64,000 nucleotides of DNA from Bacteroidales bacterium (GCA_023133485.1 JAGLWK010000067.1:8015-72014); one strand, 5' to 3'; positions 35,062 through 63,042 are shown, counted from the first letter of the stretch. Program-made: numbers and translations. The notes: generated by a model not told the origin, from the letters alone.

Positions 35062-35218
35062 TGTTTTCTGATTAATGATAAAGTGTATCGTACTAAAAAA
35101 GTTTACTGTTAATGTTTAAATCTTTGCTAAGTGGAATTTATAAATTATGCTTAGATGAGGAGAGGCGTACTGACGGTTATTTGATTGTCAGTTGCCTACT
35201 TGGTTGTATGCCGTAATT

Positions 35219-37693
35219 TTAGAATTGGTACCCTAATAAAAAATATAATTTTCTTATTACTGAATTTAGACTTGGATAAATAGACATGCCATTCCCTCTT
35301 TCATATCTAAGTTCAAGCGAATAATTTTTATATATAGTACCTAACCCAAAAATATATCCTTGTTCATATTTTCGGATTTCTTCTATAGCTTTATCTTCTT
35401 TAATATTTAGACTACCGGATAACATTGTTTCTTTTTTTAAATAATTTTTTTCAGCAATTACTAATCCGTTAGACAAACCAATATTGAAATAAAGCAATAT
35501 ATTATTCTCGGAATATTGATAACGAAACATGTTATTCATCTTTATATAAGAATATCCAATAATTGTATTAAAAATTTCGTAATTACTTGAATTATAAATG
35601 TTTTTATATTTTCCTTCAACTTTATATGAGGTGTAAAATAGCTCATTATATGAAGACCAACGATTAAGTTTATTCCTAGGAACAAATAAATCGAAATATA
35701 TACCTGTAGAAAAGTTAAAAGATTTAGGATAATCAGTATTCACAAGATAAGTAAGTGAATAACCTTTAAATTGCACAGAACTTATTGACATTCCTGCAAC
35801 TATACCAATTTTTACGAATATTTTTTCTTGATTATCACTAGAATTCAATTTTAAATCACATGCTTGATAAAACGCAAATAGCTTCTTCAAGCTTTCTTTA
35901 TCATACTTAACCTTACTCAATCTTGAATGAATTGATTGACAATCATTAAGATATGAAAGTAATTGACCAACAAATTTCTTATTCTCTACTATATTTGATT
36001 TCCCATTAATTTTCTTTAGATACTTTTTATATTCCAATAGTTCAAATTGATTATTTTGTTTTATAAAAAAATTATTTTCGCCATTATTGTTTTTACAATA
36101 GTACAAACTTTTTTCACCCAGCACCAATGTTTGTAAAAAAACTGTGTCAATTTCAAAATGAAATTTTGGATTATATTCTAGCTTATTTATGTTTTGGGTA
36201 CTATTTTCTCTTTTTACAATAGAACTAACATAAATATTACCTTGTGCACGAAACAACTTAATATCATCAGGTGAATAAGACACCTTTTCATCATTAATAT
36301 CATACTGAAAGTTTATTTCTTTAGGATTATTCTCCCAATTTCGATAATCAATAAATCCTTGTAAAGTATCACCATTTTTAGAAATAATAATCCCTTCAAC
36401 GACTTCAGATTCTCTTGATAATATCTCTGGTTTTCTTTGAAATTTAATCTTAGATTTTGTATTTACATGATAAAATGTAAACAGTTCTTTCATACTCCTC
36501 TTTTCATACTTAACTTTATTCAATCTTGAACGAATTGATTGACAATCATTAAGATATAAAAGTAGTTGACCAACAAATTTCTTATTCTCTACTATATTTA
36601 ATTTTCCATTAATTTTCTTTAAATATTTTTTATATTCCAATAGTTCAAATTGATTATTTTGTTTTATATAAAAATTATCTTCGCCATTATTATTTTTACA
36701 ATAGTATAAACTTTTTTCACCTTGCACCAATGTTTGTAAAAAAACTGTGTCAATTTCAAAATGAAATTTTGGATTATATTCTAGCTTATTTATGTTTTGA
36801 GTACTGTTTTCTCTTTTTACAACAGCACTAACATAAACTTCATTTTGTCCTTGAAACAGCATAATATCTCTAGGTGAATAGAGAACCATATAACCATAAA
36901 TATTCTCCTGAAAGTTTATTTCTTTAGGATTATTCTCCCAATTATGATAATCAATAAACCCTTGTAAAATTTTACCATTAATAAAAACAATAATTCCTTT
37001 AACGGCTTCAGATTCTTTTGATAATACTTCTGGATTTCTTTGAAATTTGATTTTAGATTTTGTACATGCATGATAAAAAATAAACAGTTCCTTCATACTC
37101 CTCTTTTCATACTCAACTTTACTCAATCTTGAATGAATTGATTGACAATCATTAAGATATGAAAGTAATTGACCAACAAATTTCTTATTCTCTACTATAT
37201 TTGATTTCCCATTAATTTTCTTTAGATACTTTTTATATTCCAATAGTTCAAATTGGTTATTTTGTTTTATATAAAAATTATCTTCGCCATTATTGTTTTT
37301 ACAATAGTACAAACTTTTTTCACCCAGCACCAATGTTTGTAAAAAAACTGTGTCAATTTCAAAATGAAATTTTGGATTATATTCTAGCTTATTTATGTTT
37401 TGGGTACTGTTTTCTCTTTTTACAACAGAACTAACATAAATATCATCTTGTACACGAAACAGCTTAATATCATTAGGTGAATAAGACACCTTTTCACCAT
37501 TAATATCATACTGAAAGTTTATTTCGTTAGGTTTATTCTCCCAATTTCGATAATCAATAAATCCTTGTACAGTATCACCATTTAAGCTAATAATAAATCC
37601 AGACAAATAATTTTCTTGGCAAAATGATGTTTGGAATATAAAAATTACAAAAATTGTTAATGCAATTCTTTCAAAGAGATTTTTTGTTTGCAT
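35219..37693 (-). CDS. Outer-membrane protein with a triplicated 201-aa N-terminal module and a C-terminal beta-barrel-like domain
   Basis: Signal peptide, then three near-identical 201-aa units, then a beta-rich C-terminus ending ...YFLLGYQF (terminal Phe). Confidence 0.8.
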   Translation of the reverse strand: MQTKNLFERIALTIFVIFIFQTSFCQENYLSGFIISLNGDTVQGFIDYRNWENKPNEINFQYDINGEKVSYSPNDIKLFRVQDDIYVSSVVKRENSTQNINKLEYNPKFHFEIDTVFLQTLVLGEKSLYYCKNNNGEDNFYIKQNNQFELLEYKKYLKKINGKSNIVENKKFVGQLLSYLNDCQSIHSRLSKVEYEKRSMKELFIFYHACTKSKIKFQRNPEVLSKESEAVKGIIVFINGKILQGFIDYHNWENNPKEINFQENIYGYMVLYSPRDIMLFQGQNEVYVSAVVKRENSTQNINKLEYNPKFHFEIDTVFLQTLVQGEKSLYYCKNNNGEDNFYIKQNNQFELLEYKKYLKKINGKLNIVENKKFVGQLLLYLNDCQSIRSRLNKVKYEKRSMKELFTFYHVNTKSKIKFQRKPEILSRESEVVEGIIISKNGDTLQGFIDYRNWENNPKEINFQYDINDEKVSYSPDDIKLFRAQGNIYVSSIVKRENSTQNINKLEYNPKFHFEIDTVFLQTLVLGEKSLYYCKNNNGENNFFIKQNNQFELLEYKKYLKKINGKSNIVENKKFVGQLLSYLNDCQSIHSRLSKVKYDKESLKKLFAFYQACDLKLNSSDNQEKIFVKIGIVAGMSISSVQFKGYSLTYLVNTDYPKSFNFSTGIYFDLFVPRNKLNRWSSYNELFYTSYKVEGKYKNIYNSSNYEIFNTIIGYSYIKMNNMFRYQYSENNILLYFNIGLSNGLVIAEKNYLKKETMLSGSLNIKEDKAIEEIRKYEQGYIFGLGTIYKNYSLELRYERGNGMSIYPSLNSVIRKLYFLLGYQF
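35807..37615 (-). repeat. Three tandem 603-bp coding repeats
   Basis: tcaatcttgaa(t/c)gaattgattgacaatcattaagata recurs at 35917, 36520 and 37123, an exact 603-bp period. Copies 1 and 3 are about 95% identical by eye. Confidence 0.9.
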
Positions 37694-37860
37694 ATGTTTT
37701 TTTGTTTTATTGTAACTAACATTAAAATTTTTTGTTTTTAATCTGTATCTCTTTAATCATAGCCTGTGTGAAAATATTTCACTTCAAAATTTCTAAAAAT
37801 CCCCTAAAATTTTCACGTTTGCTTGAGAAATTAATCGGTTTTTCTAATGTGAGGAATGCG

Positions 37861-37930
37861 CCATAACATTTGAATATATCGAAGAATAGATGTATTTCTC
37901 TTATACGATAAATCAAAATGTTTTTTTAAC
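37861..37930. repeat. Intergenic repeat, D-type copy D1 (short)
   Basis: ccataacatttgaatatatcgaagaatagatgtatttctcttatacgataaatcaaaatg aligns with the D copies at 41111, 45528, 46694 and 61256. Confidence 0.75.
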
Positions 37931-37967
37931 CTATGTCGTCTTGAACGTAACTATTTTCAGAGATTCC

Positions 37968-38798
37968 CTAAAGCAATTTAATTCCATCTTCGTTTATTTC
38001 CACAATCTTTTGCTTATATAAATTTCCCAAACTTTTTTTGAAGGCTTTTTTACTCAAGCCCAATATTTGTTTTATATCTTCAGGACTGCTTTTATCTGTC
38101 AAATTCAGGAAACCATCGTTTTTTTTTGTTGCCGAAATAATAATATCGGAATTTTTATCAATGTTGCTTTTGTAACCTATGGGTTCTAAAAGAATGTCTA
38201 TTTTTCCATCTTCTCTTACTTGCTTTACGTATCCTTTTATTTTATCTCCGGGATTAATGTTTTTATGAATGTCTGATTTAAAAATTAAACCTTTATACAT
38301 GTTGTTAACAATTGCATTCATTCCTAATTCGGTCATGTTGTAAAGTAAAAGGTCAACTTCATCTCCTTGATTTACATTTATTTCGTTAAAAATCACAAAT
38401 TCATTCTCTTTGCTTGAACCAATTAATCGTTCGGTTTGTTCATCAATTAGCAGAAAAATTAAATACCAATTTCCTTCCTCCATTTTTTCTGATTGCTCGG
38501 CATATGGAACCATTAAATCTTTTGGTAATCCCCAGTCCATAAAAGCTCCGTACTGATTAACTTCTTTTACTTGTAAAAAAGCAAATTCTTCAAGTTGAAC
38601 ATAAGGCTTTAAGGTTGTTGCAACAATACGATCTTCAGAGTCTTTATAAATAAAAACTTCTATTTCGTTTGAAATTTTCATATCATCAGTTACGTAAGCA
38701 TTTGGTAAAAGCACTTCGTTGTTAGCGTTATCTATTAAATAATAGCCAAAATCAGATGCTCTGGCAACTGTAAGTTTGTTAATTTTTCCAATTTTCAT
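37968..38798 (-). CDS. cvfB: CvfB/YitL-family S1-like RNA-binding protein
   Basis: MKIGKINKLTVARASDFGYYLID..EVLLP, then repeated S1-like modules (..QYGAFMDWGLPKDLMVP) and a C-terminal wHTH-like tail. The start is taken at MKIGK; the ORF track extends it to 38882. Confidence 0.75.
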   Translation of the reverse strand: MKIGKINKLTVARASDFGYYLIDNANNEVLLPNAYVTDDMKISNEIEVFIYKDSEDRIVATTLKPYVQLEEFAFLQVKEVNQYGAFMDWGLPKDLMVPYAEQSEKMEEGNWYLIFLLIDEQTERLIGSSKENEFVIFNEINVNQGDEVDLLLYNMTELGMNAIVNNMYKGLIFKSDIHKNINPGDKIKGYVKQVREDGKIDILLEPIGYKSNIDKNSDIIISATKKNDGFLNLTDKSSPEDIKQILGLSKKAFKKSLGNLYKQKIVEINEDGIKLL

Positions 38799-39074
38799 AA
38801 GTGATACAAATGTATGCAATATTTTCGATTTATAGCAATAACAGGAAGTAGGGTTTTTTGAACTAAAAATCATGAAAACCAAAAAGGAAATTAGATGAGT
38901 TGATAGTATGATTTTAGTATTTTTATTGAAAGGTAAGTATATGAATTGTAGGTGATTGGGTGCAAATCACCTGACAGGTTACACAAAGTTGGAAGCGAGT
39001 TAATACACTTGAAAAACCTACTTTCACACCTGTTTTTTTTTATACATTATTGGGCACAGTTTTTATTCAGGATT

Positions 39075-39953: not shown

Positions 39954-40100
39954 TTTTAGTTATATGTCCAATCTTTTTAGATTTAAAATTATGACTAATG
40001 TCAAATTTTATTGTTGATTATCAGTATTTTATATTTTTTTAAAACTTATCAATTTTTACTTACTTTTCTCCACATTTTTGACGTTTGCTTTGATAAGCAG

Positions 40101-40294
40101 TTGGCATAACAATTTTTCCTGCAAAATAGTAAATTCTTTTATCTTATTTTTTCTCATTTATAAAATGTTGAATAACAAATTTAATAATATAAAAAAGCGT
40201 AATTACAAAGCTAACTACCGTCAGACAAATTTCTGCTTAACTGAGTGTACTGGCGGTTATTTGATTGTAAGCCGTTTACTTGATTGTGCATAGT
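40101..40294. repeat. Intergenic mosaic repeat, A/B-type copy (degenerate), plus the E module
   Basis: ttggcataacaatttttcctgcaaaatagtaaa and tttataaaatgttgaataacaaattt match copies at 56411, 60181 and 62209. gtactggcggttatttgattgtaagccgtttacttgattgtg matches 35166-35218. Confidence 0.75.
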
Positions 40295-41089: not shown

Positions 41090-41110
41090 GTAAGTCGATT
41101 TAAATTATTT

Positions 41111-41305
41111 ACAACATCTTAATATATCAAAAAGTAAATACATTTCTTTTATATAATAAATCCAAATATTTTTTAACTTTTTCTGTTTTAGTTAGTTATA
41201 TAATTTATTATTATTAATCATATTCAAATATAATATTTTTTCTCATTTATAAAATGTCGAATTGCAAACCTGACTGCCGTCAGGCAGGTTTCTGCATAGC
41301 CGGTG
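41111..41305. repeat. Intergenic repeat, D-type copy D2, with a CCTGACTGCCGTCAGGCAGG hairpin
   Basis: acaacatcttaatatatcaaaaagtaaatacatttcttttatataataaatccaaatatttttta...catattcaaata... then aacctgactgccgtcaggcaggtt. Confidence 0.8.
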
Positions 41306-41316
41306 CTTCATGAGTT

Positions 41317-42378: not shown

Positions 42379-42437
42379 AAAATTTAGTTTTTTGTTATAT
42401 TGCGTGTTGGCACTTGTTTTAAATATTATAAATAATG

Positions 42438-42989
42438 CTAAAATAGTGGAATTCTATATCGCATAGTTAATCCATTGTATTTGTTCCCGAACTGATAATT
42501 CAACTGAATTTTATTGTATTCAAACCCGGCATCAAAAATATAACCCGGATTATTCTGATTGTATTTATTCAGCCCTGCCCCTAACAGTACAGAGAATGTT
42601 TTTATATCAGCAATCGATTTAAGGTCGTTATACAATCCCTTGTAACCAAGGTATAATGTATCTGCAAGATTTATAAGGCTATCCTGAGTAACAATGTGGA
42701 TATCAGCCTTTTTTTCGTAATTTTCAAATACTGCAATGAGTTCGTCCTTTGCTTTGATAATTGTACCAAGTCGTGCCTTTTGTAATTGAAATTCCTCAAG
42801 ATCATGCACCATCTGCACATATTCGGAATAATTAATTGCAACAATGGTATCTACGTCATCTTTGAACAGCCAGTACTCTAGTTGTGCTTCGTGTCCTTGA
42901 AGCGTTTTGCCTTTTATTGAAATACTTTCCTGTGCCTGCAGCAAATATGCTCCGATAACATATATAATAATAATTAATAATTTTTTCAT
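42438..42989 (-). CDS. Small secreted / outer-membrane-associated protein
   Basis: Signal peptide MKKLLIIIIYVIGAYLLQAQ. C-terminus ...GLTMRYRIPLF has a terminal Phe. Gap of 3 nt to the upstream gene. Confidence 0.6.
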   Translation of the reverse strand: MKKLLIIIIYVIGAYLLQAQESISIKGKTLQGHEAQLEYWLFKDDVDTIVAINYSEYVQMVHDLEEFQLQKARLGTIIKAKDELIAVFENYEKKADIHIVTQDSLINLADTLYLGYKGLYNDLKSIADIKTFSVLLGAGLNKYNQNNPGYIFDAGFEYNKIQLNYQFGNKYNGLTMRYRIPLF

Positions 42990-42992
42990 AGT

Positions 42993-43448
42993 TTATTGGT
43001 TATTATTTATTATCCTTCTTGCTCTTAAAACCATATCTTCCGGCGCTGTCTCATGAATCTTTCTCTCCAGTTCCTTTAATTCTTCTTCATATTTTTCATC
43101 AGCACGCAAAATATCCAGTGCCGTTTTCTTTTTTGCCTCGTCAAGCTTTTCTTTAGCTACTCTGAAGTTTTCTTTGGTAATCTCTCCGTTTATTTTAAGC
43201 TCTTCATACTCATTCTCCAGTTCTTTGAGCCTTTTTTCACGTCGCTCCAGTTCTTTAAGGAGTCTGTTCTTTTTTACAGCTTTGTAGAAAATAACAGCTC
43301 CCAGTGCCGACAAACCAAACAAAATCATCCATGATCTTTTACTTTTAAGATCGAAATCGCGAACAAACAGTATAAATACAACAATAAGTATTACAGCTAA
43401 TATCAGCAGGTCACCGTTGTTTTTAATATATTGCCAAATTTGTATCAT
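42993..43448 (-). CDS. 2-TM coiled-coil membrane protein
   Basis: Two hydrophobic helices followed by a Lys/Glu-rich heptad region (LKELERREKRLKELENEYEELK...). Gap of 3 nt to the neighbouring gene. Confidence 0.6.
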   Translation of the reverse strand: MIQIWQYIKNNGDLLILAVILIVVFILFVRDFDLKSKRSWMILFGLSALGAVIFYKAVKKNRLLKELERREKRLKELENEYEELKINGEITKENFRVAKEKLDEAKKKTALDILRADEKYEEELKELERKIHETAPEDMVLRARRIINNNQ

Positions 43449-43451
43449 ATC

Positions 43452-44114
43452 TTAAGATTTTTTTGATTTACCAACTTTTTCAAAACGCTTTATTAACTGG
43501 TGCAATGGTTCTGAACCAGCAGTAAGAATTGCTGCAGTAAGTACTATTTTTACCCATGGAGCAAGTTTACCAATAAGAATTGTTTCGCTAACCTTATTCA
43601 GAATAGTTACCAGATCGATTTTTAAAAACCGATATACCCAAATTGAGAATAACAAGGATAATACAAGAGCAAATATTCTGCTTATAATTCTGTAATACTG
43701 AGTTCTGACAGATTTTGTAGCAATTATATCTTTTCCACCTGTATAAGGCTTTTCCGATATAATATTCCAGAGTATCCATCTGTATAATAGTTTTTTATCT
43801 TCAGTATCTGAGCCCTGAAATCCGTATAGTCTGTCAAGCCGTACTTTAAATTTTTCTGCCTGCCTGTTCCAGAATTTGTACCAGCCTCGTTTTATATCGA
43901 GATACTTTACAATACTCATAAATATTTCTGTTGTACGCTCTACAAATATTGCCAGTATAAGGAACAGGAACAAAAGGTATGTTATTTTAGTAATAATCGC
44001 TACAGAAGTAACGGATTCTGTCGCTGATTCCGAAGCTGTATCCATAGCTATTTGAGGAATTGTGTCTGCAGCTACTTTTATAATGGTATCTGTAATTGTT
44101 ACTAATTCTTCCAT
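43452..44114 (-). CDS. Membrane protein, paralogous to the N-domain of the adjacent amidase
   Basis: Shares with aa 1-200 of 44127..45479 the layout TM-(I/V)ER...(TM)...AGS(E/K)P(L/I): FVERTTEIF / LIERILSFL and LTAGSEPLHQLIKRF / GAGSKPINFLMNF. Confidence 0.6.
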   Translation of the reverse strand: MEELVTITDTIIKVAADTIPQIAMDTASESATESVTSVAIITKITYLLFLFLILAIFVERTTEIFMSIVKYLDIKRGWYKFWNRQAEKFKVRLDRLYGFQGSDTEDKKLLYRWILWNIISEKPYTGGKDIIATKSVRTQYYRIISRIFALVLSLLFSIWVYRFLKIDLVTILNKVSETILIGKLAPWVKIVLTAAILTAGSEPLHQLIKRFEKVGKSKKS

Positions 44115-44126
44115 AATTATTATATT

Positions 44127-45479
44127 TTAAGCGATTACCATTGGTTTCTTTTTGAATAATTCAAGTGCCTTTTTGAATCCGGCATTATCTTTCCAGTTAT
44201 TGTAATAGTTTGTTATGCTCTCCTTAAATTCATCGTGTGGAAAGTTCCCGCCCGGACATGCTTTATCAGCAATCAAATGATGCGGAATAATTCCTTTCAC
44301 AGCATCGCCTGGTTCAAATGATTCCGGAAAAGTAAAAGGTATATTCTGAAGCAATGCATACATAGCAATAACTCTTGCAGCTGCCAGTAGCTGTTTCCCG
44401 GAAGGGATCATTAATCCAAGATCACCATTGGGGTTTGAGAAAGGAATATTGGGGTTAGGTTCGAAATTTCCCTGAAAAGCAATTCCAAATGAGTGTGAAT
44501 TATGAGGTTTAGCATGATTTCCAAACCGATCCCACCTGCAGAGGACTCTTATAGTACCATCCTTAAAAACAACACAGTTATAACCGGTAAGCCAGCCTTT
44601 TCTGTCAAATTCTTTTACTACCTCTTCAAATGGGGCATCACTGTGCATTGCTGTGTGATGGTATACAATTAAATCAATTGTTCTGGTATATTTATGTGTA
44701 TTTTCTAATCTGTCAGGTTTATTTCCTCCGTCATATTCAAATCCTACCAGATCCTCAATAGTCTCAGGTTCAATCTCTTTTGTTGTTGGCGACACTTCTT
44801 TTTGTATATCTGAGTCTGTTTTTTGTAAAACGTTGGAATCCGGAATTTTTTTCGATTCTTCCTTTATCTCGTCAGTTTCAGCTTCAATCTTTCTGTTTAC
44901 CAGAAAGTTCATCAGAAAATTTATTGGCTTACTTCCTGCACCAATTATTATTCCAGTAAAAATATATTCAAAGGTAGAATGTGAATTCGGAAATTCCGTT
45001 TCTGTATAATACCTGAAAAATTCCCAGATTGAGAAATTAAGAGCTCTGCATACAAAAATTGCAATTAGTGTTCCAAGTATTTGCATCCAGAATTCTTTAA
45101 TAATTACATTGTTTTCCTTGTATTTAATGTATCGCTCATTATCATCAAGGATGTGTTGTAAAGGTCTGATAAGTAAAAGATCAAAACATGAACTTTTTTG
45201 CTTTTCTTCAGGTAAAGCAGGATTAAACGCAACTTCACAGGGATCTTTATCAACAACAGTTTGATTGAGAATTATTTTATCTTCCTCAATGGCTTGTTTT
45301 TCCCTTCTCAATTGTTCCTGCAATTTTTCTACTTGCGTATATCTGTTTGAATACTGAAAAAGGAACATTCGGTTTATTGCCAGATTCAAAAAACTTAAGA
45401 TGCGTTCAATCAAAAGCGAAGCACCAAGGATTGCTGCAAGCTTTACTATAAGCTTATATAATAAAATGTTTTCATCCAT
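44127..45479 (-). CDS. Membrane-anchored N-acetylmuramoyl-L-alanine amidase (Amidase_2/PGRP domain) fusion protein
   Basis: The C-terminal ~190 aa carry IDLIVYHHTA, GYNCVVFKDGTI, NSHSFGIAFQGNF and IIPHHLIADKACPGGNF, giving the His/His/Cys Zn-ligand pattern of Amidase_2. The N-terminal ~200 aa are membrane and coiled-coil. Confidence 0.8.
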   Translation of the reverse strand: MDENILLYKLIVKLAAILGASLLIERILSFLNLAINRMFLFQYSNRYTQVEKLQEQLRREKQAIEEDKIILNQTVVDKDPCEVAFNPALPEEKQKSSCFDLLLIRPLQHILDDNERYIKYKENNVIIKEFWMQILGTLIAIFVCRALNFSIWEFFRYYTETEFPNSHSTFEYIFTGIIIGAGSKPINFLMNFLVNRKIEAETDEIKEESKKIPDSNVLQKTDSDIQKEVSPTTKEIEPETIEDLVGFEYDGGNKPDRLENTHKYTRTIDLIVYHHTAMHSDAPFEEVVKEFDRKGWLTGYNCVVFKDGTIRVLCRWDRFGNHAKPHNSHSFGIAFQGNFEPNPNIPFSNPNGDLGLMIPSGKQLLAAARVIAMYALLQNIPFTFPESFEPGDAVKGIIPHHLIADKACPGGNFPHDEFKESITNYYNNWKDNAGFKKALELFKKKPMVIA

Positions 45480-45527
45480 AATTGATATTGTTTATGTATT
45501 TAAATCTTGTTCATAGCATTAATGAAT

Positions 45528-45770
45528 GCCAACATCTGAATATATCGATGAGTAGATATATTTCTCTTATATGATAAACCCAAATATTATTTAACTTGTT
45601 TTGTTATAGTTAGTTATATAATTTATTTATTATTATTAATAATATTCAAATCCCCGGCAGGCAGGACAAACTGCACTGTTGTTTTATTTAATATTTTTCG
45701 TTTCACCTGCCTGCCGCCAGGCAGGTATTTGCACTTTCCGCCCGCTTGAATTTATAGCATGTTGGGCATA
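45528..45770. repeat. Intergenic repeat, D-type copy D3 (long)
   Basis: gccaacatctgaatatatcgatgagtagatatatttctcttatatgataaacccaaatatt...attcaaatcc..., then cctgcctgccgccaggcagg, ending cgcccgcttgaatttatagcatgttgggc (GTTGGGC at 45761-45767). Confidence 0.85.
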
Positions 45771-45775
45771 GTACA

Positions 45776-46702
45776 TTATTGTTCATTTATTTGATATGTT
45801 AAGTCATCTAAATCAAAATCATTAATATTTTCCTTTTGTGCCGGCTCTATCCTTAAAAAAATACTGCCATCATCATTTAACCAGGCACCATAACTATATT
45901 CTTTATTAGGTCTTAATAAAATTTCTTTTTTAACATTGAAGAAACCTGAATATTCAGGCTGTTTATCCGATGTTTTTAAGGGAATCTTTTGTAACATTAT
46001 TTGAAATGAATCAAAATCAGAAAAAATTTCATTGTCATTTTTATAGAATTTAGGATACTGTTCTTTTAATTTTTCTCTTAATTTCCCACTTGTATGATAA
46101 TTTATTATTCGCCTATTTTCGTTGCGTTCAATCCAAATTAGGTTCATATCATGTAATAGATTAAGTCGTTGCCAAATAACATTTGAATATTCATTATTTA
46201 AGTTCATCCCTTGAAAAACTTGCCTAACGACTTCTTTTTTTGTTTTGCACTTGGTAATAATTATCAATAATTCAAGTTCTTTTTCATTTAGCTTATTCCA
46301 TTCTTGTGTTATAACCGTTGAATCCAGCCTATTAATAATTTCATCCCTATCCGCAACAGTTTTCAATAATTTAAAACCATTCTTACACTCATGACAAAGA
46401 CATTTACTGTCAAAATATAAATTCTCAAAGTTAACATCTGAGCGAACATGGTAAGTTTTAATTTCCTTTTGGCAATTTTCACAAAAAAATTTCAGGGAGC
46501 TATTTATCTTAACCAGATATATTACTTTAGGTACAGAAATCTTATTTTCCTTCGCAATATCTTTGACTAATGTTTTGTACTTAAATTCATCTCTGTCAAA
46601 ATCCCAGTACTTATTGCAAATATTTACAATTTGAGAATTATCCGTTTTAATATCTAATTGTGCTGATTTTTGTTCCATTTTATCTTGTATTATGCCCAAC
46701 AT
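45776..46702 (-). CDS. Hypothetical protein with a Cys4 zinc-ribbon and a wHTH-like region
   Basis: CENC...17 aa...CLCHEC zinc-ribbon pattern. The more likely start is MEQKS at 46678, because the first 8 codons lie inside repeat D4. Confidence 0.6.
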   Translation of the reverse strand: MLGIIQDKMEQKSAQLDIKTDNSQIVNICNKYWDFDRDEFKYKTLVKDIAKENKISVPKVIYLVKINSSLKFFCENCQKEIKTYHVRSDVNFENLYFDSKCLCHECKNGFKLLKTVADRDEIINRLDSTVITQEWNKLNEKELELLIIITKCKTKKEVVRQVFQGMNLNNEYSNVIWQRLNLLHDMNLIWIERNENRRIINYHTSGKLREKLKEQYPKFYKNDNEIFSDFDSFQIMLQKIPLKTSDKQPEYSGFFNVKKEILLRPNKEYSYGAWLNDDGSIFLRIEPAQKENINDFDLDDLTYQINEQ

Positions 46703-46791
46703 CTGAATATATCAAAGAGTAAATACATTTCTTTTATACAATAAATCCAAATATTTTTTATTATTAATCATATTCAAATCCCTGTTAAAAC
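46694..46791. repeat. Intergenic repeat, D-type copy D4 (98-bp minimal form)
   Basis: gcccaacatctgaatatatcaaagagtaaatacatttcttttatacaataaatccaaatattttttattattaatcatattcaaatccctgttaaaac. Internal arms atctgaatat / atattcaaat are inverted. Confidence 0.85.
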
Positions 46792-47915: not shown

Positions 47916-48120
47916 TTCTGCTTTATATTATAAAGACATGAAAAATCTGATTTGGTAACCACCCTAACCAGAAAAATTTATAATTTTTTTATTAAGGAAT
48001 ATTCTTTCAGGTTGATTATTATCAGGTTGCGGGATAATCGTTTAATAAAATGGATTTGAATGATATTGTTAGTAGTTATTTCCTCGTTAAGCGGAATTTG
48101 AAATTCCGTTTAGCTAAGGA
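47916..48120. repeat. Intergenic repeat, F-type copy F1
   Basis: ttctgctttatattataaagacatgaaaaatctgatttggtaaccaccctaacc...attctttcaggttgattattatcaggttgcgggataatcgt...aatggatttgaatgatattgttagtag matches 53232-53710 in three blocks. It ends with an agcggaatttgaaattccgt hairpin. Confidence 0.8.
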
Positions 48121-53231: not shown

Positions 53232-53710
53232 TTCTGTCTTATATTATAAGACATGAAAAATATGATTTAGTAACCACCCTAAACCGAAAAATTCATAATT
53301 TTTTTACGCATAAGAAGTACCAACAAATTTGTAGTTTTTAACAACCCTAAATTTGGGTACTTCTAATGTGGGATTTCCCGCTTTGCTTCCCCTTATCCAT
53401 CACACATTCATGCAATTCACTCAGTTTTTGCATGAATAAAGCGGGTTAAAATGATTTTTTATAAAAAAATATTCTTTCAGGTTGATTATAATCGTGTTGC
53501 GGGATAATCGTGTAACTTCTCAATAAGTTACAGCAGATAATTAAACCAAACAATAGAACAATAGAACAATAGAACAATAGAACAATTATAATAGTCGTGG
53601 CACGGCTCACTTAAATTAGATGTAAACAACTAATAATCAACATATCCGTGCCACGACTTGCGGGTTTTAGGTAATAAATGGATTTGAATAATATTGTTAG
53701 TAACTATTTC
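53232..53710. repeat. Intergenic repeat, F-type copy F2, carrying two ~155-bp nested insertions
   Basis: Blocks 53232-53305, 53461-53511 and 53669-53710 align to F1. They are interrupted by 53306-53460 and 53512-53668, each with its own hairpins (agaagtacc/ggtacttct; attcatgca/tgcatgaat; gtcgtggcacgg/ccgtgccacgac) and an (acaataga)x4 microrepeat. Confidence 0.8.
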
Positions 53711-54368: not shown

Positions 54369-54369
54369 T

Positions 54370-56275: not shown

Positions 56276-56407
56276 AAATTTTCCTTTTGATAAAATAATT
56301 ATTTTAATATTAAAGTAAATATTTTTTATACCAATTACGTTTATATTGATACAATATACTAATTAAAAAGTTTGATAATATACTGCTGCCTTATTTTTTA
56401 TCTGATA

Positions 56408-56640
56408 ACTTATTGGCATAACAATTTTTCCTGCAAAATAGTAATTTTTTTTATATACAGAGCGGTAATAAATTATACTTTACTTAATTACGTATGTGTT
56501 TAATAATTAATTAATAGAGTGTAATGTGGAAGTTTATTTTATGGTCAGTCGAAGTATATTCTATTTTTTTATTTATAAAATGTTGAATTGCAAATTTAAC
56601 AATAAAAAAAGCGGAATTATAAATTCCGCTTAGCGTAGGA
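56408..56640. repeat. Intergenic mosaic repeat, A/B-type copy AB1 (233 bp); contains the minus-strand terminator of the HMA gene
   Basis: About 95% identical by eye to 60177-60407. On the minus strand, aagcggaatttataattccgctt followed by TTTTTT forms an intrinsic terminator (plus-strand coordinates 56604-56632). Confidence 0.85.
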
Positions 56641-56675
56641 TAAAATCGTTTTGTTAAACCGATAACTATTTTATT

Positions 56676-57059: not shown

Positions 57060-57098
57060 AGTTTTAAGTTTTAGATTTAGTTATTAAATTAAAAAAAA

Positions 57099-59309
57099 TT
57101 ATTTATAAGTTTTGATTTTATAGCGTAAACCAATGTAGAATTTACGCCCTGTTAAAGGACCCCAAACCATTGATGCATCAAAATAATCACCAAATGGATC
57201 ATCGGAAGCTATTATAGGTTCATCTTGTGTGAAATCAGTAATATTTTCAACACCAAGGTAAAAGTCCCATCTTTTAAAATATTTTGTTATTTGAGCATTA
57301 AAGATAGCATAAGGATCAAAGCTTTCTGCTTTCTGATATTGAACAGGATTTTGTTCTGTAGATGGCAATATGCCGTTACCATTAAGCTGTGAAGTAAAAT
57401 CGAATTGCCATTTTTTCAAATTTGTATAGTAGCTTATAGTAAATAAACCTTTATACTGATTTACAAGTGGCTTTTGCTGAAATTTATCATTAATAGTTGT
57501 TTTAACATCTGTCCGTCTGAATGCAGTAGTAATATCCAAGCGTTCTAATGGCTCAAATATAAGTTCTATTTGTGCACTATTAGAGTACGAGCGTCCGTTT
57601 AGATTATAAAAGAGAACACTACTCACATCTGTTTCCATATCCACAATAATCTGGTTTATAAATTTTGTCTTATAAAATTCAGTATTTACTGTTAATTCAC
57701 GATTAAAAAGCAGTAAATCCTTTGAGGCAGATATGCCGAAATTCCACGCCTCTTCGGGTAACAATTTTTCCATAACCGTGATTTTTCTGGAACTAACCAA
57801 AGTATAACTGTTTTCTGCAAAAATACAGGAAGTTCGAAAACCTTTTCCTGCCGAACCCCTGATAACGAAACTATCACTAAAATTATATTTTAAATGAAGA
57901 CGTGGTGTATAAAATAATCCGAATAAATTATGAAAATCAGCCCTTAATCCTGCTATTACGGCAAATTTATCTTCGAATAAATAGGTGTACTGAAAAAAAA
58001 TGCCTGGCACATTCTCAATTCTACTAAAATTTTCATTATCAAGCTTTTCGGTAAAATCATCATGTATAAAACTTATTCCGGTTCTAATGTTATGATTTGT
58101 ATTAAACATATAAGTATGAAACATCAGATTAGCATAATAGCTTTTCTGGTTACCATAATAATTACGTAAACCGTAAACAGATGACTGATCGTGCAATTTG
58201 GCAGACTGGATAAAACCAATACTAGTTTTCTGGCGATTAAAAATTATTCCAAATTTATGGAACAATTGTATATTCTTTGTTTCGATATTTACACTGTAGC
58301 CGTTTTCTAAATCATTCGGTTTATCCTTATCATAAGTTATTTGTCCTCCCAACCTATGTTCTTCAAGATATTTTATACCAAATTGAGTTTTAAAATTTTT
58401 GCTATTATATTTCCATCGATTTATAAGGTTGTATTGTTGCAATGTTGGCATATCAACAAATCCATCATTGTTTAAATCGTGCTGGAGTTGGTTGTTTTCT
58501 CCATGTATCAGAATTGCTGAAGACCATTTGTCGTTTAATGCAAAACGATAATTAGAGTTAAGTTCGGTTTTCCCTTTATCATTAGCAAGCAGGTTAAGGT
58601 AAAACTTATTACCGTCGTCAGGCTTTTTATATTCCACATTGATTTGTCCTGTAATTGATTCATACCCGTTTTCAACAGTTGCTGTACCTTTAGAAACCTG
58701 AATACTCTCCATCCAGTGCCCCGGAATATATGTTAAACCGTACATACTTGTTAGTCCTCTGACGAATGGTATTTTTTCTGTCATAATCTGACTGTATTTT
58801 CCGTCCAGACCAAGAAGTTTTATTTGCTTTGCTCCTGTAACAGCATCAGCATAATTAACATCTATCGATGCGTTGGTTTCAAAACTTTCCGATAAATTAC
58901 AGCAAGCTGCTTTTTTAAGTTCACCTCCATCAATATGCTGTACATGTATTGGATCTACTTTGGAAATGTAAGAAAGATTCTTTCTTTCAGATATGTCAAT
59001 TGTATTTAATAGTATTGAGGAAAGCAATGAAATTTTAATATCATCTTGCTTGTCATCAATTTTAATAGTATCCGTTTTATAACCTACATAACTAACAACT
59101 AATTGTTTTGATTTATTTGATCGAATAATATGAAATTTACCATCTTTATTGGTAACGGCTCCTTTATCTGTATCAAGCCATTGCACATTAGCAAAAGGTA
59201 AAATTTCACTTTTGTTTTTGTCTATACCGTAAACAACACCATGTAAATTTTCTTGTGAATTTGCAGATATATTTATCAGCAATACACAGAATATTATATA
59301 ATATTTCAT
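57099..59309 (-). CDS. TonB-dependent receptor with a CarboxypepD_reg-like N-terminal domain
   Basis: N-terminus LHGVVYG......LPFANVQW.DT.KGAVTNKDGKF. Plug-like region (IDGGELKKAA..LSESF..N). A ~600-aa beta-barrel follows. Confidence 0.85.
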   Translation of the reverse strand: MKYYIIFCVLLINISANSQENLHGVVYGIDKNKSEILPFANVQWLDTDKGAVTNKDGKFHIIRSNKSKQLVVSYVGYKTDTIKIDDKQDDIKISLLSSILLNTIDISERKNLSYISKVDPIHVQHIDGGELKKAACCNLSESFETNASIDVNYADAVTGAKQIKLLGLDGKYSQIMTEKIPFVRGLTSMYGLTYIPGHWMESIQVSKGTATVENGYESITGQINVEYKKPDDGNKFYLNLLANDKGKTELNSNYRFALNDKWSSAILIHGENNQLQHDLNNDGFVDMPTLQQYNLINRWKYNSKNFKTQFGIKYLEEHRLGGQITYDKDKPNDLENGYSVNIETKNIQLFHKFGIIFNRQKTSIGFIQSAKLHDQSSVYGLRNYYGNQKSYYANLMFHTYMFNTNHNIRTGISFIHDDFTEKLDNENFSRIENVPGIFFQYTYLFEDKFAVIAGLRADFHNLFGLFYTPRLHLKYNFSDSFVIRGSAGKGFRTSCIFAENSYTLVSSRKITVMEKLLPEEAWNFGISASKDLLLFNRELTVNTEFYKTKFINQIIVDMETDVSSVLFYNLNGRSYSNSAQIELIFEPLERLDITTAFRRTDVKTTINDKFQQKPLVNQYKGLFTISYYTNLKKWQFDFTSQLNGNGILPSTEQNPVQYQKAESFDPYAIFNAQITKYFKRWDFYLGVENITDFTQDEPIIASDDPFGDYFDASMVWGPLTGRKFYIGLRYKIKTYK

Positions 59310-59505
59310 GATTTTTTTCTCCTATATTTGAATGGTAACTTCAAAGATTACATTTCATAGTCAATTTAATAGTAATTCGTGATTTGTAATCAGCAAATTT
59401 GAAACTTGCAAATAACAAATAACTGACTACTTGAATAAAAGATATAATTTTAGAAGTAACCTTATTAATAAATTATTAGATAATTGAATTAGTATGAAAA
59501 ATATA

Positions 59506-59958
59506 TCATAAAATCCAAACATTAATAAAGGATAGGTAATTTGAGATTTGTTTAAAGTGAATGACAGTATCAAAAAAAGAGCGAAGAATTTTACTCTTTT
59601 CTTGTGATTCATTAGTAATTAGAACTGTTATTAAGGGTATAATATGATTAACTATAATATGTTTTTTGGAAATAAATGGCTTGGAAATTCTATAAATCAG
59701 AGTTTTATATTTGCAGCATTTGTTATGAACAGGACAAATTTGTTTGTCGCTTTTGTTATGACTATTACTTATATTATATGTTTTTGTTTTATGTGATTCA
59801 TGATGCGATGTACAACATTTTTCTTTCACACTTAATAAATGTATGTCTTTATTATTACATGATAAGCAAGTATGTTCAGTTAAAACAATACCCGAAGAAA
59901 ATATTATAAAAATGCTCAGGATAATACTGCTAATGATATGTAAAATAGTTTTTTTCAT
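59506..59958 (-). CDS. Small membrane-anchored Cys/His-rich putative metal-binding protein
   Basis: N-terminal TM, then EHTCLSC, KCCTSHHESH and CPVHNKCC motifs. It is the first gene of the receptor/HMA operon. It resembles the small HYC/CC-motif proteins found next to such receptors in Bacteroidota (recalled from memory, not verified). Confidence 0.55.
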   Translation of the reverse strand: MKKTILHIISSIILSIFIIFSSGIVLTEHTCLSCNNKDIHLLSVKEKCCTSHHESHKTKTYNISNSHNKSDKQICPVHNKCCKYKTLIYRISKPFISKKHIIVNHIIPLITVLITNESQEKSKILRSFFDTVIHFKQISNYLSFINVWIL

Positions 59959-60125
59959 TTATTGATTAACAAATGTACGATATATTCTTGTTTTTCAAGT
60001 ATAATATTGCTAAAAAAAATCAAAAACTTAAGGGTAAATACAAGGTAGTAAAAATTCTTGATTCTTTTTTTGATGAGAAAGAAATAGATAAATTTTACCA
60101 CCAAGCTTAAGAAGTTACTTTGGTA

Positions 60126-60455
60126 AGCGAAATTGCAAACCTGACTGCCGTTAGGCAGGTTTCCGCTTTTGTCCACCTTATTGGCATAACAATTTTTCCT
60201 GCAAAATAATAAATTTTTTTATATACAGAGCGGTAATAAATTATACTTTACTTAATTACGTATGTGTTTAATAATTAATTAATAGAGTGTAATGTGGAAG
60301 TTCATTTTATGATCTGTCGAAGTATATTCTATTTTCTTATTTATAAAATGTTGAATTGTAAATTTAACAATAAAAAAAGCGGAATTGCAAATTCCGATTA
60401 GATGAGAAAATATTTTTATTATTTTATTTGGTTAAGTCTTAGAATTCGATTGTGT
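60126..60455. repeat. Intergenic mosaic repeat, C + A/B-type copy AB2
   Basis: gcgaaattgcaaacctgactgccgttaggcaggtttccgcttttgtcca.cttattggcataacaatttttcctgcaaaata... matches 62155-62385 and 56408-56640. It contains the terminator hairpin gcggaattgcaaattccg plus an A-run (T-run on the minus strand). Confidence 0.85.
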
Positions 60456-60502
60456 GGCGTTTTTTCTCTATTGTCGTCATATACTTGTCAATATAATTTT
60501 TA

Positions 60503-61204
60503 TTACCATATAAATGGAATTAACCTATATCTAGTTTTTTGACAATATTCTTTGTATCCATTTAAATTATTAGATAAAACTTTTTCCTCATTAAGAATTC
60601 TTAATGCGAGGGAAACAGGAAGTAAAGCGAAAGGGATTAGCCCCCAATATGAACCAAGGGCAATTGGTGTGGGTATAAACATTATTAGTACACCTATGTA
60701 CATTGGATGACGAACAATTCCGTAAAAGCCATTAGATATTATCTTTTGATTTTCATTGACTTCAATTATATTCGATGCGTAACTATTTTGCTTGAATACA
60801 AAAAAGATAATAAGATAGCCCAATAAAATGACTATGTCTGCTGAGATAGTTATATATATTGGTACATTAGACCAGATAAAACGGTGATCTAAACCCGGGA
60901 TAATAAATCCTGCAAGAAAAACTAAAGTCGATAGTATTGAAATTAAAATTTGTTGCTTTTCCTTTTCTTTTGCTCTTGTCCTACGTTCTAAAAATTTTGG
61001 ATCTATTTTTAAAAAATAAAACACAACAAAAGTCATTGGAACAACGAGAATTCCGAAATAGACATACACCTGCCAATAATCAAATGTTCCCGCAGGTAAA
61101 AGAATAAGAAGCCCAAGAGAAATAGGGAAAAATGAAAATCTGATAATGATTATTTTTATCAATGATATCATTTCCTGTCGTGTCAACTCGCTTTTCTTTT
61201 TCAT
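60503..61204 (-). CDS. Isoprenylcysteine carboxyl methyltransferase (ICMT/PEMT) family membrane methyltransferase
   Basis: Multi-TM protein. GFYGIVRHPMYIGVLIMF...LRILNEEKVL...GYKEYCQKTRYRLIPFIW is the family signature. Confidence 0.8.
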   Translation of the reverse strand: MKKKSELTRQEMISLIKIIIIRFSFFPISLGLLILLPAGTFDYWQVYVYFGILVVPMTFVVFYFLKIDPKFLERRTRAKEKEKQQILISILSTLVFLAGFIIPGLDHRFIWSNVPIYITISADIVILLGYLIIFFVFKQNSYASNIIEVNENQKIISNGFYGIVRHPMYIGVLIMFIPTPIALGSYWGLIPFALLPVSLALRILNEEKVLSNNLNGYKEYCQKTRYRLIPFIW

Positions 61205-61255
61205 TGGTTAATTCCTTTCTTAAAATTCTACAATTCAATTTTTATTCTTAAAATG

Positions 61256-61432
61256 CCTCACAACATCTGAATATATCGAAGGGTAGATATATTTCTAATA
61301 TACAATAAATCCAAATATTTTTTAATTCGTTCTGTTTTTGTTAGTTGTATGCTTTTATTATTAATTGTAATCAAATCTTTGGCAGGCAGGTATTTGTTCT
61401 TTCTGCCCACCTGAATTTAAAGCATGTTACCA
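61256..61432. repeat. Intergenic repeat, D-type copy D5
   Basis: cctcacaacatctgaatatatcgaagggtagatatatttctaatatacaataaatccaaatatttttta...ggcaggcaggtatttgttctttctgcccacctgaatttaaagcatgttacc aligns end to end with D3. Its last ~16 nt overlap the 3' end of the PIN-like gene. Confidence 0.85.
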
Positions 61433-61803
61433 CCTGAACTTTGTTCGTCATCAATAAATGTTATATAAGTTTTATCAATTTCAATCAAAAAATATGATTT
61501 TGGGCTGAGTTTTGTAATTGAATTAATATTCTCTGATATAATTCGAATCAGTTCTTGATTTGAAATATTTCCAAGATTTATTTTAATAAGCTTTTTTGGT
61601 GTTTTTTTAATAAAGAAACTATCGCGAAAATCAGAATCTTTAGTAATTACAATCAAATCATTAGAATCTGCATAATTACATATATCTATGTCCTTTGTAT
61701 GCCATTTATCAAGTATTTCATTTACATGTATTGTCTCAAATCCTAATGAAATTAAATGTTTAACAACTTTATAAGAAATATGTACATCGCAAAGAAATCT
61801 CAT
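61417..61803 (-). CDS. DUF5615-family PIN-like toxin
   Basis: MRFLCDVHIS..VVKHLISLGFETIHV......D.DI..YA..N.LIVITKDSDF. The start overlaps the stop of the DUF433 gene. Confidence 0.8.
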   Translation of the reverse strand: MRFLCDVHISYKVVKHLISLGFETIHVNEILDKWHTKDIDICNYADSNDLIVITKDSDFRDSFFIKKTPKKLIKINLGNISNQELIRIISENINSITKLSPKSYFLIEIDKTYITFIDDEQSSGGNML

Positions 61804-62030
61804 TAAGCAACATCTTTAATAGAATGACCAGATAAATAAAGTTTAGCAAAATTTAAACTTGCCAAAATATCTTCTCTTTCTAATTCAGGATGGTCTTCAA
61901 CAATTTGCTCAATTGTCATACCAGAACCTAACATGTCAATAATTACTTCGACTGGCCATCTCATTCCACGAACGCAAGGCTTTCCATGACATATATTTGC
62001 GTCTATTGTAATCCTATCTATTAGACTCAT
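61803..62030 (-). CDS. DUF433-domain antitoxin-like protein
   Basis: ICHGKPCVRGMRWPVEVIIDMLGSGMTIEQIVEDHPELEREDILASLNFA is the DUF433 signature. Confidence 0.8.
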   Translation of the reverse strand: MSLIDRITIDANICHGKPCVRGMRWPVEVIIDMLGSGMTIEQIVEDHPELEREDILASLNFAKLYLSGHSIKDVA

Positions 62031-62154
62031 AGCTATATTTTTTTAACAAAAATACTAATTTTTTATTAGATATGTTTTAAGGTTCTATTTTTTTTGGTTT
62101 GGCTGTAAAATAAATATATAATTATCAAAAAATATGTTCAACAACTCTCGATAA

Positions 62155-62385
62155 GCGGAATTACAAACTTGACTGCCGTTAGGCAGGTTTCCGCTTTTGT
62201 CCATCTTATTGGCATAACAATTTTTCCTGCAAAATAGTAAATTTTTTCATCATATTCTTTCATATTTATAAAACGTTGAATAACAAATTTAACAAAATAA
62301 AAAAGCGGAATTACAAATTCCGCTCAGAGAAGAAATTATTTTTATTATTTTATTTGGTTAAGTCTTAGAATTCGATTGGGTAGTG
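62155..62385. repeat. Intergenic mosaic repeat, C + A/B-type copy AB3 (lacks the ~110-bp internal block of AB1/AB2)
   Basis: gcggaattacaaacttgactgccgttaggcaggtttccgcttttgtccatcttattggcataacaatttttcctgcaaaatagtaaa...aaaaaagcggaattacaaattccgct...ttatttggttaagtcttagaattcgatt. Confidence 0.85.
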
Positions 62386-62389
62386 TAAT

Positions 62390-62593
62390 TTACTTAGATT
62401 CTTTCTTCAAAATGTCAGAGATACCTAAGTCTTTACATATCTTTCGACACAGATTCTCTTTGATGTCTGGATGTCTTGGTACTGTTGACATTTTCTCCGT
62501 TTTAGTATTCTTATACAATGAGTGCTTTCCACCCTCTCTTGCAAGCGAGCAGCCATTCTTCTCAAGATATTTAATAAACTTATTTCGTTTCAC
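62390..62593 (-). CDS. hicA: Type II toxin-antitoxin system HicA-family toxin
   Basis: MKRNKFIKYLEKNGCSLAREGGKHSLYKN..T.K.STVPRH.DIKENL...ICKDLGI. Confidence 0.85.
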   Translation of the reverse strand: MKRNKFIKYLEKNGCSLAREGGKHSLYKNTKTEKMSTVPRHPDIKENLCRKICKDLGISDILKKESK

Positions 62594-62826
62594 TATAAGC
62601 TAAAAGATAGGGTTTGTGTAATCAATTTCTTAACTCTGTCTTTTTTGTTCCTTATCTGGCTAGCCCGTCTTTCTTCAAACATAAGGTTAATTGCTTCCGA
62701 AAGATTCTCTTTCGCTTCTTTAATGGTTTCTCCCTGACTGTTTATTCCTGGTATTTCTTCAACATATGCAATGTATCCACCTTCATCACAAGGTTCAAAT
62801 ACGGCTGTCATTTCAATCTTACTCAT
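62593..62826 (-). CDS. hicB: Type II toxin-antitoxin system HicB-family antitoxin
   Basis: TAVFEPCDEGGYIAYVEEIPGINSQGETIKEAKENLSEAINLMFE. It overlaps the hicA start by 1 nt. Confidence 0.85.
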   Translation of the reverse strand: MSKIEMTAVFEPCDEGGYIAYVEEIPGINSQGETIKEAKENLSEAINLMFEERRASQIRNKKDRVKKLITQTLSFSL

Positions 62827-62931
62827 AAAGTCATGTTTTTACAAAGATAAGAATTTTTTGGTAAATATCGTTGGATTAATTTATGTTTTCGTTTTACTTT
62901 TACTTATTCTGACTAACGAGTAGCAATAAAA

Positions 62932-63042
62932 TTTGGCCGGAATTTTCCTGCAATTCATTTTCTACTTAATTTTATACTCAAATATAGCAAAACTGCTTTA
63001 AACAGCATCTTCGCCCGGCTTGATTTTATTGCGTGTTAGTAA
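62932..63042. repeat. Hybrid intergenic repeat (A-type end plus D-type start) at the upstream edge of the minus-strand gene array
   Basis: tttggccggaattttcctgcaattcatt resembles ttggcataacaatttttcctgcaaaatagt. cgcccggcttgattttattgcgtgttagta resembles cgcccgcttgaatttatagcatgttgggc of D3. Confidence 0.6.

Follow-up and report, generated by a model that had tools for sequence, protein, structure and literature searches.

Integron arrays are defined by the attC hairpins that separate their gene cassettes, and little is known about the fate of an array after hairpin loss or about the gain, loss and swapping of attC sites. Clusters of attC sites without an integron-integrase (CALINs) are common and usually carry no remnant of the integrase gene intI (Cury et al. 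2016, PMC4889954); these cassettes remain open to mobilisation in trans, and integrons are known in Bacteroidota (Ghaly et al. 2022, PMC9668308). One suggested path to cassette domestication is the loss of attC through replication slippage (Loot et al., bioRxiv 10.1101/2022.09.11.507474). Here we describe a co-oriented gene block at positions 35219–62826 (minus strand) of a 64,000-nt stretch of DNA from a Bacteroidales bacterium (GCA_023133485.1, JAGLWK010000067.1:8015-72014), referred to below as the window. We tentatively read this block, at a probability of roughly 0.42, as a remodelled, integrase-less, CALIN-like array of integron-type cassettes in the chromosome of a Bacteroidales metagenome-assembled genome (MAG). 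The array joins integron-type boundaries, one proven and two probable cassettes, spacers that are not attC sites, and chromosomal genes of ordinary appearance. Integrons and CALINs are known; what is new is an array that keeps the core grammar without the attC fold and that holds a cassette found near-identical in a canonical array elsewhere.

The block resembles a CALIN or a sedentary chromosomal integron in its co-oriented, unrelated units, which include two toxin-antitoxin pairs and orphan genes, and like most CALINs it has no adjacent integrase. Its units are bounded by inverse cores (GTT... and ...AAC), spacer conservation runs from AAC to GTT as in a genuine cassette array (locus L018), and its ICMT cassette is common to the block and a canonical array. 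Unlike those of a CALIN, the spacers have about 20–30% GC, lack both a bottom-strand hairpin and L-box pairing, and consist of shuffled modules, intrinsic terminators and promoter-like boxes among them; multi-gene operons or housekeeping genes make up several of the units, and phase complementarity is seen in part of the array only. Single attC sites lacking an integron-integrase (SALINs) and cassettes domesticated at attG (bioRxiv 10.1101/2022.09.11.507474) share with the block a location outside canonical att sites, a minimal GWT/GTT target and the absence of a nearby integrase, and the attC loss by replication slippage proposed for them is of the kind considered here. They differ in that the block groups several such units into one co-oriented array, with a copy of the same repeat ahead of each, and in that the downstream junction falls at the R'' triplet and is followed by another repeat family. 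The bacterial interspersed mosaic elements (BIMEs) and repetitive extragenic palindromes (REPs) of E. coli and the pneumococcal BOX elements are modular intergenic elements of shuffled motifs, with transcript-end hairpins and nesting, which are dispersed genome-wide and are not known to be bounded by integron core triplets. In general character, the spacers are like these elements in their modularity, hairpins and nesting; unlike them, the copies are locally clustered and uniformly oriented, and at least one neighbouring unit is a proven cassette. The standard attC-based definition may not capture such an array.

The DNA read comprises ~79 kb of one scaffold, namely the window plus 5.8 kb to its right (L001) and 9.2 kb to its left (L015), the flanks being taken from ENA ERZ23498665 scaffold_38 (131.8 kb; window position x corresponds to scaffold position 69820 − x). 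The window, with a GC content of 31%, is 100% identical to contig DAOVLP010000021.1 of Bacteroidales MAG GCA_030631205.1. Between 35219 and 62826 the minus strand carries all substantial open reading frames (ORFs), as a first-pass annotation had stated, and independent gene calls on the same DNA agreed, with one 45-aa call as the sole exception; opposite-strand genes border the block on both sides. By ORF finding, Pfam and the independent gene calls, the block encodes hicB/hicA; DUF433/PIN; ICMT (ICMT/PEMT methyltransferase); h150; a TonB receptor with HMA; an FGE-sulfatase tagged for the type IX secretion system (T9SS); an ECF sigma factor with a TPR gene; two T9SS cargo genes; h168 and pYEATS; Zn308; a four-gene Amidase_2 operon; an amidohydrolase; two hypotheticals; cvfB; and an 824-aa repeat protein. 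Several of these proteins are orphans.

The ICMT unit (60449–61264, minus strand) provides the central evidence. Its R' core, GTTGTGAGG, starts at 61264, its gene lies at 60503–61204, and its R'' core, CCACACAAT, occupies 60449–60457. ICMT has thousands of homologs at 73–96% identity, and we saw it in four independent contexts with mutually unrelated upstream flanks. The match to the window reaches 96.4% nucleotide identity in L026–28, exactly over 61264–60450, with 86% in L029 and 84% in L030–32. In all of these, homology starts at 61264 or at most 4 nt away, at the G of the GTT that ends a type-1 repeat (one of three spacer repeat families described below), and in L026–29 it ends at 60450/60446, at ...GCCACA(C/T)AA(C/T). 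Moreover, ICMT in L026 has attC hairpins on both sides, with the bottom strand more stable (z down to −4.4). Judged by the breakpoints at GTT and AAY and by these attC flanks, the ICMT unit is a genuine integron gene cassette whose boundaries are intact in the window. Since it is only ~4% diverged from the copy in a canonical array, cassette traffic would have lasted until recently at least. In plasmids, the ICMT protein had distant homologs only (≤41% identity). The spacers on either side of this verified cassette have kept nothing but the core triplets and otherwise resemble transcription punctuation.

At its 3' end, the ICMT body is joined to three unrelated sequences (window 60449–60457, L026 ~1506–1657 and L029 ~2150–2192), each time with the break at the R'' triplet. 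One cassette body on different attC interiors is not predicted by the rule that a cassette is a gene plus its own attC, and is relevant to how cassettes arise.

We also compared the R' 9-mer after each repeat with the first downstream spacer of ≥30 nt and permuted the assignments over 18 spacers. In the real array L018, the variable R' ahead of a cassette complements the R'' after the same cassette perfectly in all nine consecutive cases. In the block, the units led by a type-1 repeat gave P = 0.0009–0.0025, and for three of the five the unit's own spacer was the unique best of 18. The matches were 9/9 for Zn308, 8/9 for the amidase operon (at a 59-nt spacer) and 7/9 for ICMT, and each of these three units starts at the G/TT that closes a type-1 repeat. 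Pairing between the two ends of one and the same spacer was at background (mean 13.4 vs. a null of 12.3), and for this reason the idea that each spacer is a transposable element with terminal inverted repeats, or a whole attC, was rejected as far as it rests on such pairing.

The cassette-like Zn308 unit (45761–46700, minus strand) has R' GTTGGGCAT at 46692–46700 and R'' ATGCCCAAC at 45761–45769. Its inverse cores are perfect, its arms form a 17-nt inverted repeat (16/17), and the pairing score is 29, compared to a shuffle maximum of 24. The Zn308 family has only five homologs among 5.8 billion proteins, one of which (55%) lies inside the 10-attC array L018. The ORF-finder start of Zn308 is an ATG within the type-1 repeat (ATGTTGGGC, window 46678–46702), and the database version starts at Met9 (46678). 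Met9 is probably the true start, in which case the repeat and the R' core fall in the 5' untranslated region (UTR). The Amidase_2 four-gene operon, also cassette-like (42406–45533, minus strand), has R' GTTGGCATT starting at 45533 and R'' AGTGCCAAC at 42406–42414, the latter being the unique best of 18 noted above. The 59-nt spacer at 42379–42437 carries GTGCCAAC/ACGCAATATAAC, the sequence that best complements GTTGGCA upstream of the amidase gene, and has an AACACGCAATA module in common with the 'edge' element that lies upstream of hicB. This spacer with its core motif splits the amidase operon from the amidohydrolase, which the first-pass annotation had listed as one unit. Zn308 and the amidase operon are probably integron cassettes as well.

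The same grammar extends to spacers beyond these three units. All four left-arm families begin at (C)AAY with unrelated sequence upstream, including left arms that follow non-cassette units, and AAT replaces AAC in about half of the left arms. At the other end, six type-1 copies close with ATGTT and diverge right after it, and four type-2 copies close with ATTGTT. The spacers therefore show the conserved AAC...GTT boundary triplets with variable bases outside them, in AAY variants, that also mark the spacers of L018. The plus-strand motifs quoted in the first-pass annotation are present, and GCCCAAC (45761–45767) and GCCCAAT (39049–39055) do follow stop codons.

The first-pass annotation had likened the block to a sedentary integron array with VCR-like attC sites. 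The cassette-array grammar holds, in ICMT, Zn308, the phase test of type-1-led units and the AAY-to-GTT boundaries; the attC part does not, as judged by folding and L-box pairing. As a control, the ten attCs of L018 (134–136 nt) folded as single-stranded DNA (ssDNA) with z of −3.2 to −8.6, and the bottom strand was more stable in 10/10. In pure type-1 copies the ssDNA fold was not significant (z +0.8 to −0.7); folding of both strands of the compact 98-nt copy at 46694–46791, the spacer that the annotation had singled out, likewise yielded nothing significant (z +0.95/+1.13). The other window spacers fold only locally, at terminator hairpins, and end-to-end pairing occurs in two of six spacers. 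The L-box duplex was at background in seven of eight spacers (−3 to −7 kcal/mol, z≈0), most true sites lying at about −10 to −18. Only the 'edge' element (62932–63042) showed marginal attC-like pairing, with a duplex of −9.4 kcal/mol (z −2.3). The terminal structure of attC sites is itself variable, at 20–100 nt. For whole attC sites the reference length is about 57–141 nt (in part after PMC4889954), and the spacer elements measure 98–330 nt, or 479 nt when nested insertions are counted. The weak folds, the absent L-box pairing and the rarity of end-to-end pairing indicate that the spacers are not canonical attC hairpins.

A CALIN call requires that a covariance model detect two or more attC sites on one strand at spacings under 4 kb, and we further built a stand-in model of this kind (R1) from nine published archaeal attCs (PMC9668308 Data S9) and aadA1. 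Its consensus matched the canonical hairpin of R and L boxes, 10 of whose 18 pairs showed compensatory changes, and the model recovered two held-out plasmid attCs (E 6e-4 and 0.04). In the window R1 found nothing better than E = 1.4; the genuine long attCs of L018 and L026 escaped it as well, so its sensitivity is limited and this negative is weak. A second model, R2, went unused, as the L stems of the attC families are in different registers and only a 7-bp R stem was left. A generic scan for attC 'grammar' lacked both specificity and sensitivity and rested on a mistaken concept, the variable R' bases within an array belonging to the next cassette; it was discarded. A Xer/dif-like reading (pdif modules) was dropped after a poor by-eye match to the E. 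coli dif consensus. L018 (1–14029 of JGI 3300033408 Ga0316605_10001384) and L019 represent a genuine integron cassette array from an organism of 32% GC, with GC-rich attCs (CTGCTAAC...GGTCGTTAGCAG) and ~15 co-oriented small genes, among them DUF4145, HEPN and a TRADD-like transmembrane protein.

Self-comparison revealed three mosaic repeat families that recur in nearly every block spacer in one orientation throughout, with repeat cores GATATATTYARATGTT and GGAAAAATTGTTATGCC. Type 1 has five window copies (at 37861, 41111, 45528, 46694 and 61256; 72–92% identity over 72 nt), type 2 has four (40101, 56408, 60126 and 62155; up to 96% over 225 nt), and type 3 has two (47916, and 53232 with its pair of nested insertions). 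The repeats lie where the first-pass annotation had placed them and in the single orientation it gave, save that 38883–39074 and 35100–35218 show only a left-arm motif and weak similarity; its description of mosaic interiors with nested insertions is also accurate, as in the hybrid at 41111–41305 and the nested copy at 53232. Intrinsic terminators were predicted by consensus match (GCGGAATT...AATTCCGC plus a T run) at 62303–62325, 56609–56631 and 60380–60396, all on the minus strand. A TAnnTTTG box, which we take to be the Bacteroidetes-type promoter consensus, could be read 11–16 nt before the ATG of several genes.

Copies of the repeats fall within ~33 kb of the ~79 kb, in uniform orientation, and the other ~46 kb has none. 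We found no type-1, -2 or -3 copy in window 1–33000 or in the 9 kb past the left edge (L015), where seven genes form a co-oriented run; these regions held only short hairpin fragments. This clustering exceeds chance. One full type-1 copy lies outside the block (L001 3573–3675, ~2.2 kb beyond window position 64000), in a convergent spacer 10 nt past the stop of a 1076-aa oxidoreductase gene and in the same genomic orientation as the array copies. The type-1 and type-2 core patterns had zero matches in species-representative genomes, JGI metagenomes and viral contigs, and type-2 repeat DNA had no match in plasmids. Apart from a nested 145-nt element (L003) and one 20-nt identity (L005), the repeat modules were not found in 249 kb of loci from relatives and elsewhere.

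If the block is indeed a remodelled cassette array, we infer that its spacers descend from, or took the place of, attC sites. Slippage across the hairpin or microhomology at CAAY, for example, would have removed the attC stem-loops, so that only the core triplets survived. AT-rich modules specific to the lineage, namely terminator hairpins, promoter-like TAnnTTTG boxes and small nested elements, may then have rebuilt the spacers, with local homogenisation by recombination between spacers; the main role of the spacers now might be to punctuate transcription between units that have promoters of their own. Through the core triplets that were kept, an integrase acting in trans would have been able to move cassettes, and the TonB/HMA, FGE/sigma, cvfB and DUF433/PIN units would behave as ordinary chromosomal genes. 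A remodelled array would document cassette domestication in a chromosome, in a phylum whose integrons are poorly studied, and would mean that tools based on attC models may miss such arrays.

The case for a remodelled array is weakest in the part of the genome beyond the DNA read, in the null result of the type-2-led units and in the break at R'', which it leaves unexplained; several results weigh against it. With ~79 kb of one scaffold read, confinement of the repeats to the array is unproven. Type-2-led units showed no phase complementarity (P 0.9–0.99), so the pairing of terminal inverse cores claimed in the first-pass annotation stands for type-1-led units and fails for these; two type-2 copies also remain 94% identical for ~65 nt beyond GTT, the putative crossover (family D12). 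ICMT homology stops at R'' and not at the next G/TT. A canonical cassette carries its own attC, and a break at R'' therefore suggests, from these alignments, attC swapping or recombination at R'' behind the ICMT 3' joins. A near-identical ICMT moreover implies that recombination was recent and took place at sites with no sign of function in the canonical bottom-strand hairpin pathway. Relatives of DUF433/PIN show no cassette-type boundary, their homology comprising the genes plus ~20 nt, and L034, the one whose flanks could be read, has ordinary chromosomal surroundings; the expectation that unit breakpoints in related sequences would coincide with the GTT/AAC motifs was thus borne out for ICMT and not for DUF433/PIN. 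The units include large operons and a housekeeping gene, each gene with its own promoter-like box. No Phage_integrase domain was found by Pfam in ORFs of the window or 6 kb upstream, and tblastn with IntI1 and a Bacteroidota tyrosine recombinase gave no match or remnant in the 79 kb. The first-pass annotation had foreseen the missing integrase and had rightly cautioned about the long copies, the terminators, the operons and the housekeeping gene cvfB.

The main rival, which we regard as unlikely, is that the repeats are native, lineage-specific intergenic elements (terminator plus promoter or leader modules) of an ordinary co-oriented region. The ...ATGTT end of type 1 would be a good secondary integrase target (attG-like, 5'-GWT-3') at which cassettes were inserted in trans, their attC hairpins being lost later by slippage. 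That the cassette signal is seen only in type-1-led units, that the remaining units resemble ordinary chromosomal genes and that a type-1 copy also stands in a convergent spacer outside the block are consistent with capture of this kind, and both insertion at GWT and attC loss by slippage have been described (bioRxiv 10.1101/2022.09.11.507474). The R'' of the window ICMT ends in AAT, like the other copy of the X1 left arm, vs. AAC in L026, which fits a junction within CAA microhomology. Capture does not explain, however, why all four left-arm families start at AAY, even after non-cassette units, or how three independent cassettes each lost the attC interior precisely, and it needs at least three independent insertions within 20 kb. 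Alternatively, the spacers may be ordinary REP/BIME/BOX-like or miniature inverted-repeat transposable element (MITE)-like mosaics unconnected to integrons, with the GTT/AAC and ICMT coincidences incidental. We consider this improbable: modular mosaics, nested insertions (one with a target-site-like duplication), terminator hairpins, modules outside the block and the lack of attC model matches would all be expected of such repeats, but they leave unaccounted for the exact ICMT breakpoints, the permutation P≈0.001 of the type-1 units, the boundary grammar at core triplets and the strict co-orientation and local clustering. Nor was a terminal inverted repeat with target-site duplication demonstrated for type 1 or type 2, type 1 having no flanking duplication at all.

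We give least credence to the spacers being functional sites of a divergent, Bacteroidales-type integron-like system that is still active. An integrase encoded elsewhere would recombine these long AT-rich mosaics at GTT and AAC cores, possibly as double-stranded DNA, so that the cassette body moves without the attC interior; the sites would also carry terminators and promoters, leaving the units insulated and self-expressed, and ICMT at three 3' sites would be the footprint of such movement. The AAY...GTT grammar in all spacers, the recent arrival of ICMT with exact core boundaries and its presence on three unrelated 3' sites (window, L026, L029), broken at R'', point in this direction, as does the report of integrons in Bacteroidota (PMC9668308). 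In two spacers with an ATGCT arm and a type-1 right arm, an R''-5 nt-L''...L'-6 nt-R' spacing may be read by eye. Such a system is nevertheless hard to reconcile with the absence of hairpins, L-box pairing and model matches, with the type-2-led units that lack a phase signal and with the failure to find a recombinase in 79 kb. A defence island was also considered and dropped, since PADLOC returned zero matches for ten array proteins. GC content gave no island signal either, as that of the array (25–34%) resembles that of its immediate flanks. The remodelled array remains our preferred, tentative reading.

The individual spacers, all on the minus strand, illustrate the shuffling of modules. The compact type-1 copy at 46694–46791 (98 nt) ends on the coding strand in ...GATATATTCAGATGTT. 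An 'ATGCT-hairpin' left arm is combined with a long-form type-1 right arm at 45528–45770, where the ends pair in the minimum free energy (MFE) fold (12 pairs), and with a type-1 right arm at 61256–61432, where it overlaps the PIN stop codon and end-to-end pairing is absent. By self-comparison, the hybrid at 41111–41305 joins a CCTGCC-type hairpin, the 5' part of type 2 and a type-1 right arm, and at 37861–37930 only a partial type 1, the right arm, is left, 167 nt upstream of the 824-aa gene. Among type-2 copies, 62155–62385 has an X1 left arm after ...ACCCAAT, the terminator at 62303–62325, a promoter-like module, an GTTATGCC end and a second hairpin; 60126–60455 contains a ~103-nt internal insertion and the terminator at 60380–60396; 56408–56640 is 96% identical to 60177–60401 and contains the terminator at 56609–56631; and 40101–40294 has a 'CAAGTA' left arm. 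That arm recurs in the left-arm-only element after the last block gene (35100–35218; GGCATACAAC/CAAGTA...). Type 3 is represented by a short copy (47916–48120) and by 53232–53710, one of whose two nested insertions is a structured 145-nt element (53305–53449). The 'edge' element upstream of hicB (62932–63042) reads TTACTAAC/ACGCAATAAAATC...ATTTTATTGC and has a 10-bp terminal stem plus a GCCGG/CCGGC stem. Type 1 contains a 10-nt imperfect internal inverted repeat (ATTTGAATAT / ATATTCAGAT). On the coding strand it is predicted to form a G·U-rich hairpin (z −0.01 to −2.85), and covariation that would mark a structured 5'-UTR RNA did not rise above shuffles.

The nested 145-nt element, read on the plus strand, has an RNA MFE of −44.8 kcal/mol (z −6.5) and is antisense to the array genes. 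It is present in one type-3 copy and missing from the sister copy; relative to that empty site, TAAAAAAT around it is the sole target-site-like duplication that we saw. A homolog lies upstream of cvfB in a relative (L003 1368–1512), where the first hairpin is maintained despite many changes on both arms, and there is a partial match at L015 13107–13167. The element had no Rfam match, and Rfam searches at gathering and permissive thresholds returned only a tRNA-Leu and sub-threshold noise. Either a new small RNA or a structured mobile element is conceivable.

In relatives whose CvfB is 82% identical, the repeats were missing; the cvfB neighbours that these relatives share are replaced in the window, a rearrangement that speaks for the remodelled array. 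The L001 type-1 copy ends in GTTAGTAAC, and its 8-mer complement TTACTAAC opens the 'edge' element (~63030–63040) upstream of hicB, so that the two bracket a reversed sortilin/T9SS gene. The TPR gene has a perfect 9-mer, GTTACTAAC, at its 3' end near 53700 as well, so the pairing is not unique. An independent short-read assembly (L002, Logan SRR13892600 contig, corresponding to window 60423–62199) breaks inside type-2 repeats at both ends, as expected if these repeats occupy several contexts in the sample. A 73-aa GTG-start ORF at 59955–60176 starts within a type-2 repeat and was not called by public gene callers, which instead gave the 45-aa opposite-strand ORF at 59973–60110; both are probably spurious.

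Three tandem repeats of 603 nt (35865–37370), 91–94% identical, lie in the 824-aa gene that ends the block, and we found no confident family match for the product of this gene. Elsewhere in the window, two divergent giant genes (2493–15146 and 15625–27084) encode Ig- and PKD-rich proteins of 4217 and 3819 aa, each followed by a PorP/SprF gene; they look like a pair of SprB-like T9SS adhesin loci. Finally, the spacer between the Fer4 and nitroreductase genes carries ~20 tandem heptamers (TCAACAY/TCAATAY) at 33642–33797, adjoined by CCTGCCTGCCGGCAGGCAGG-type hairpins that are found within the array spacers too.

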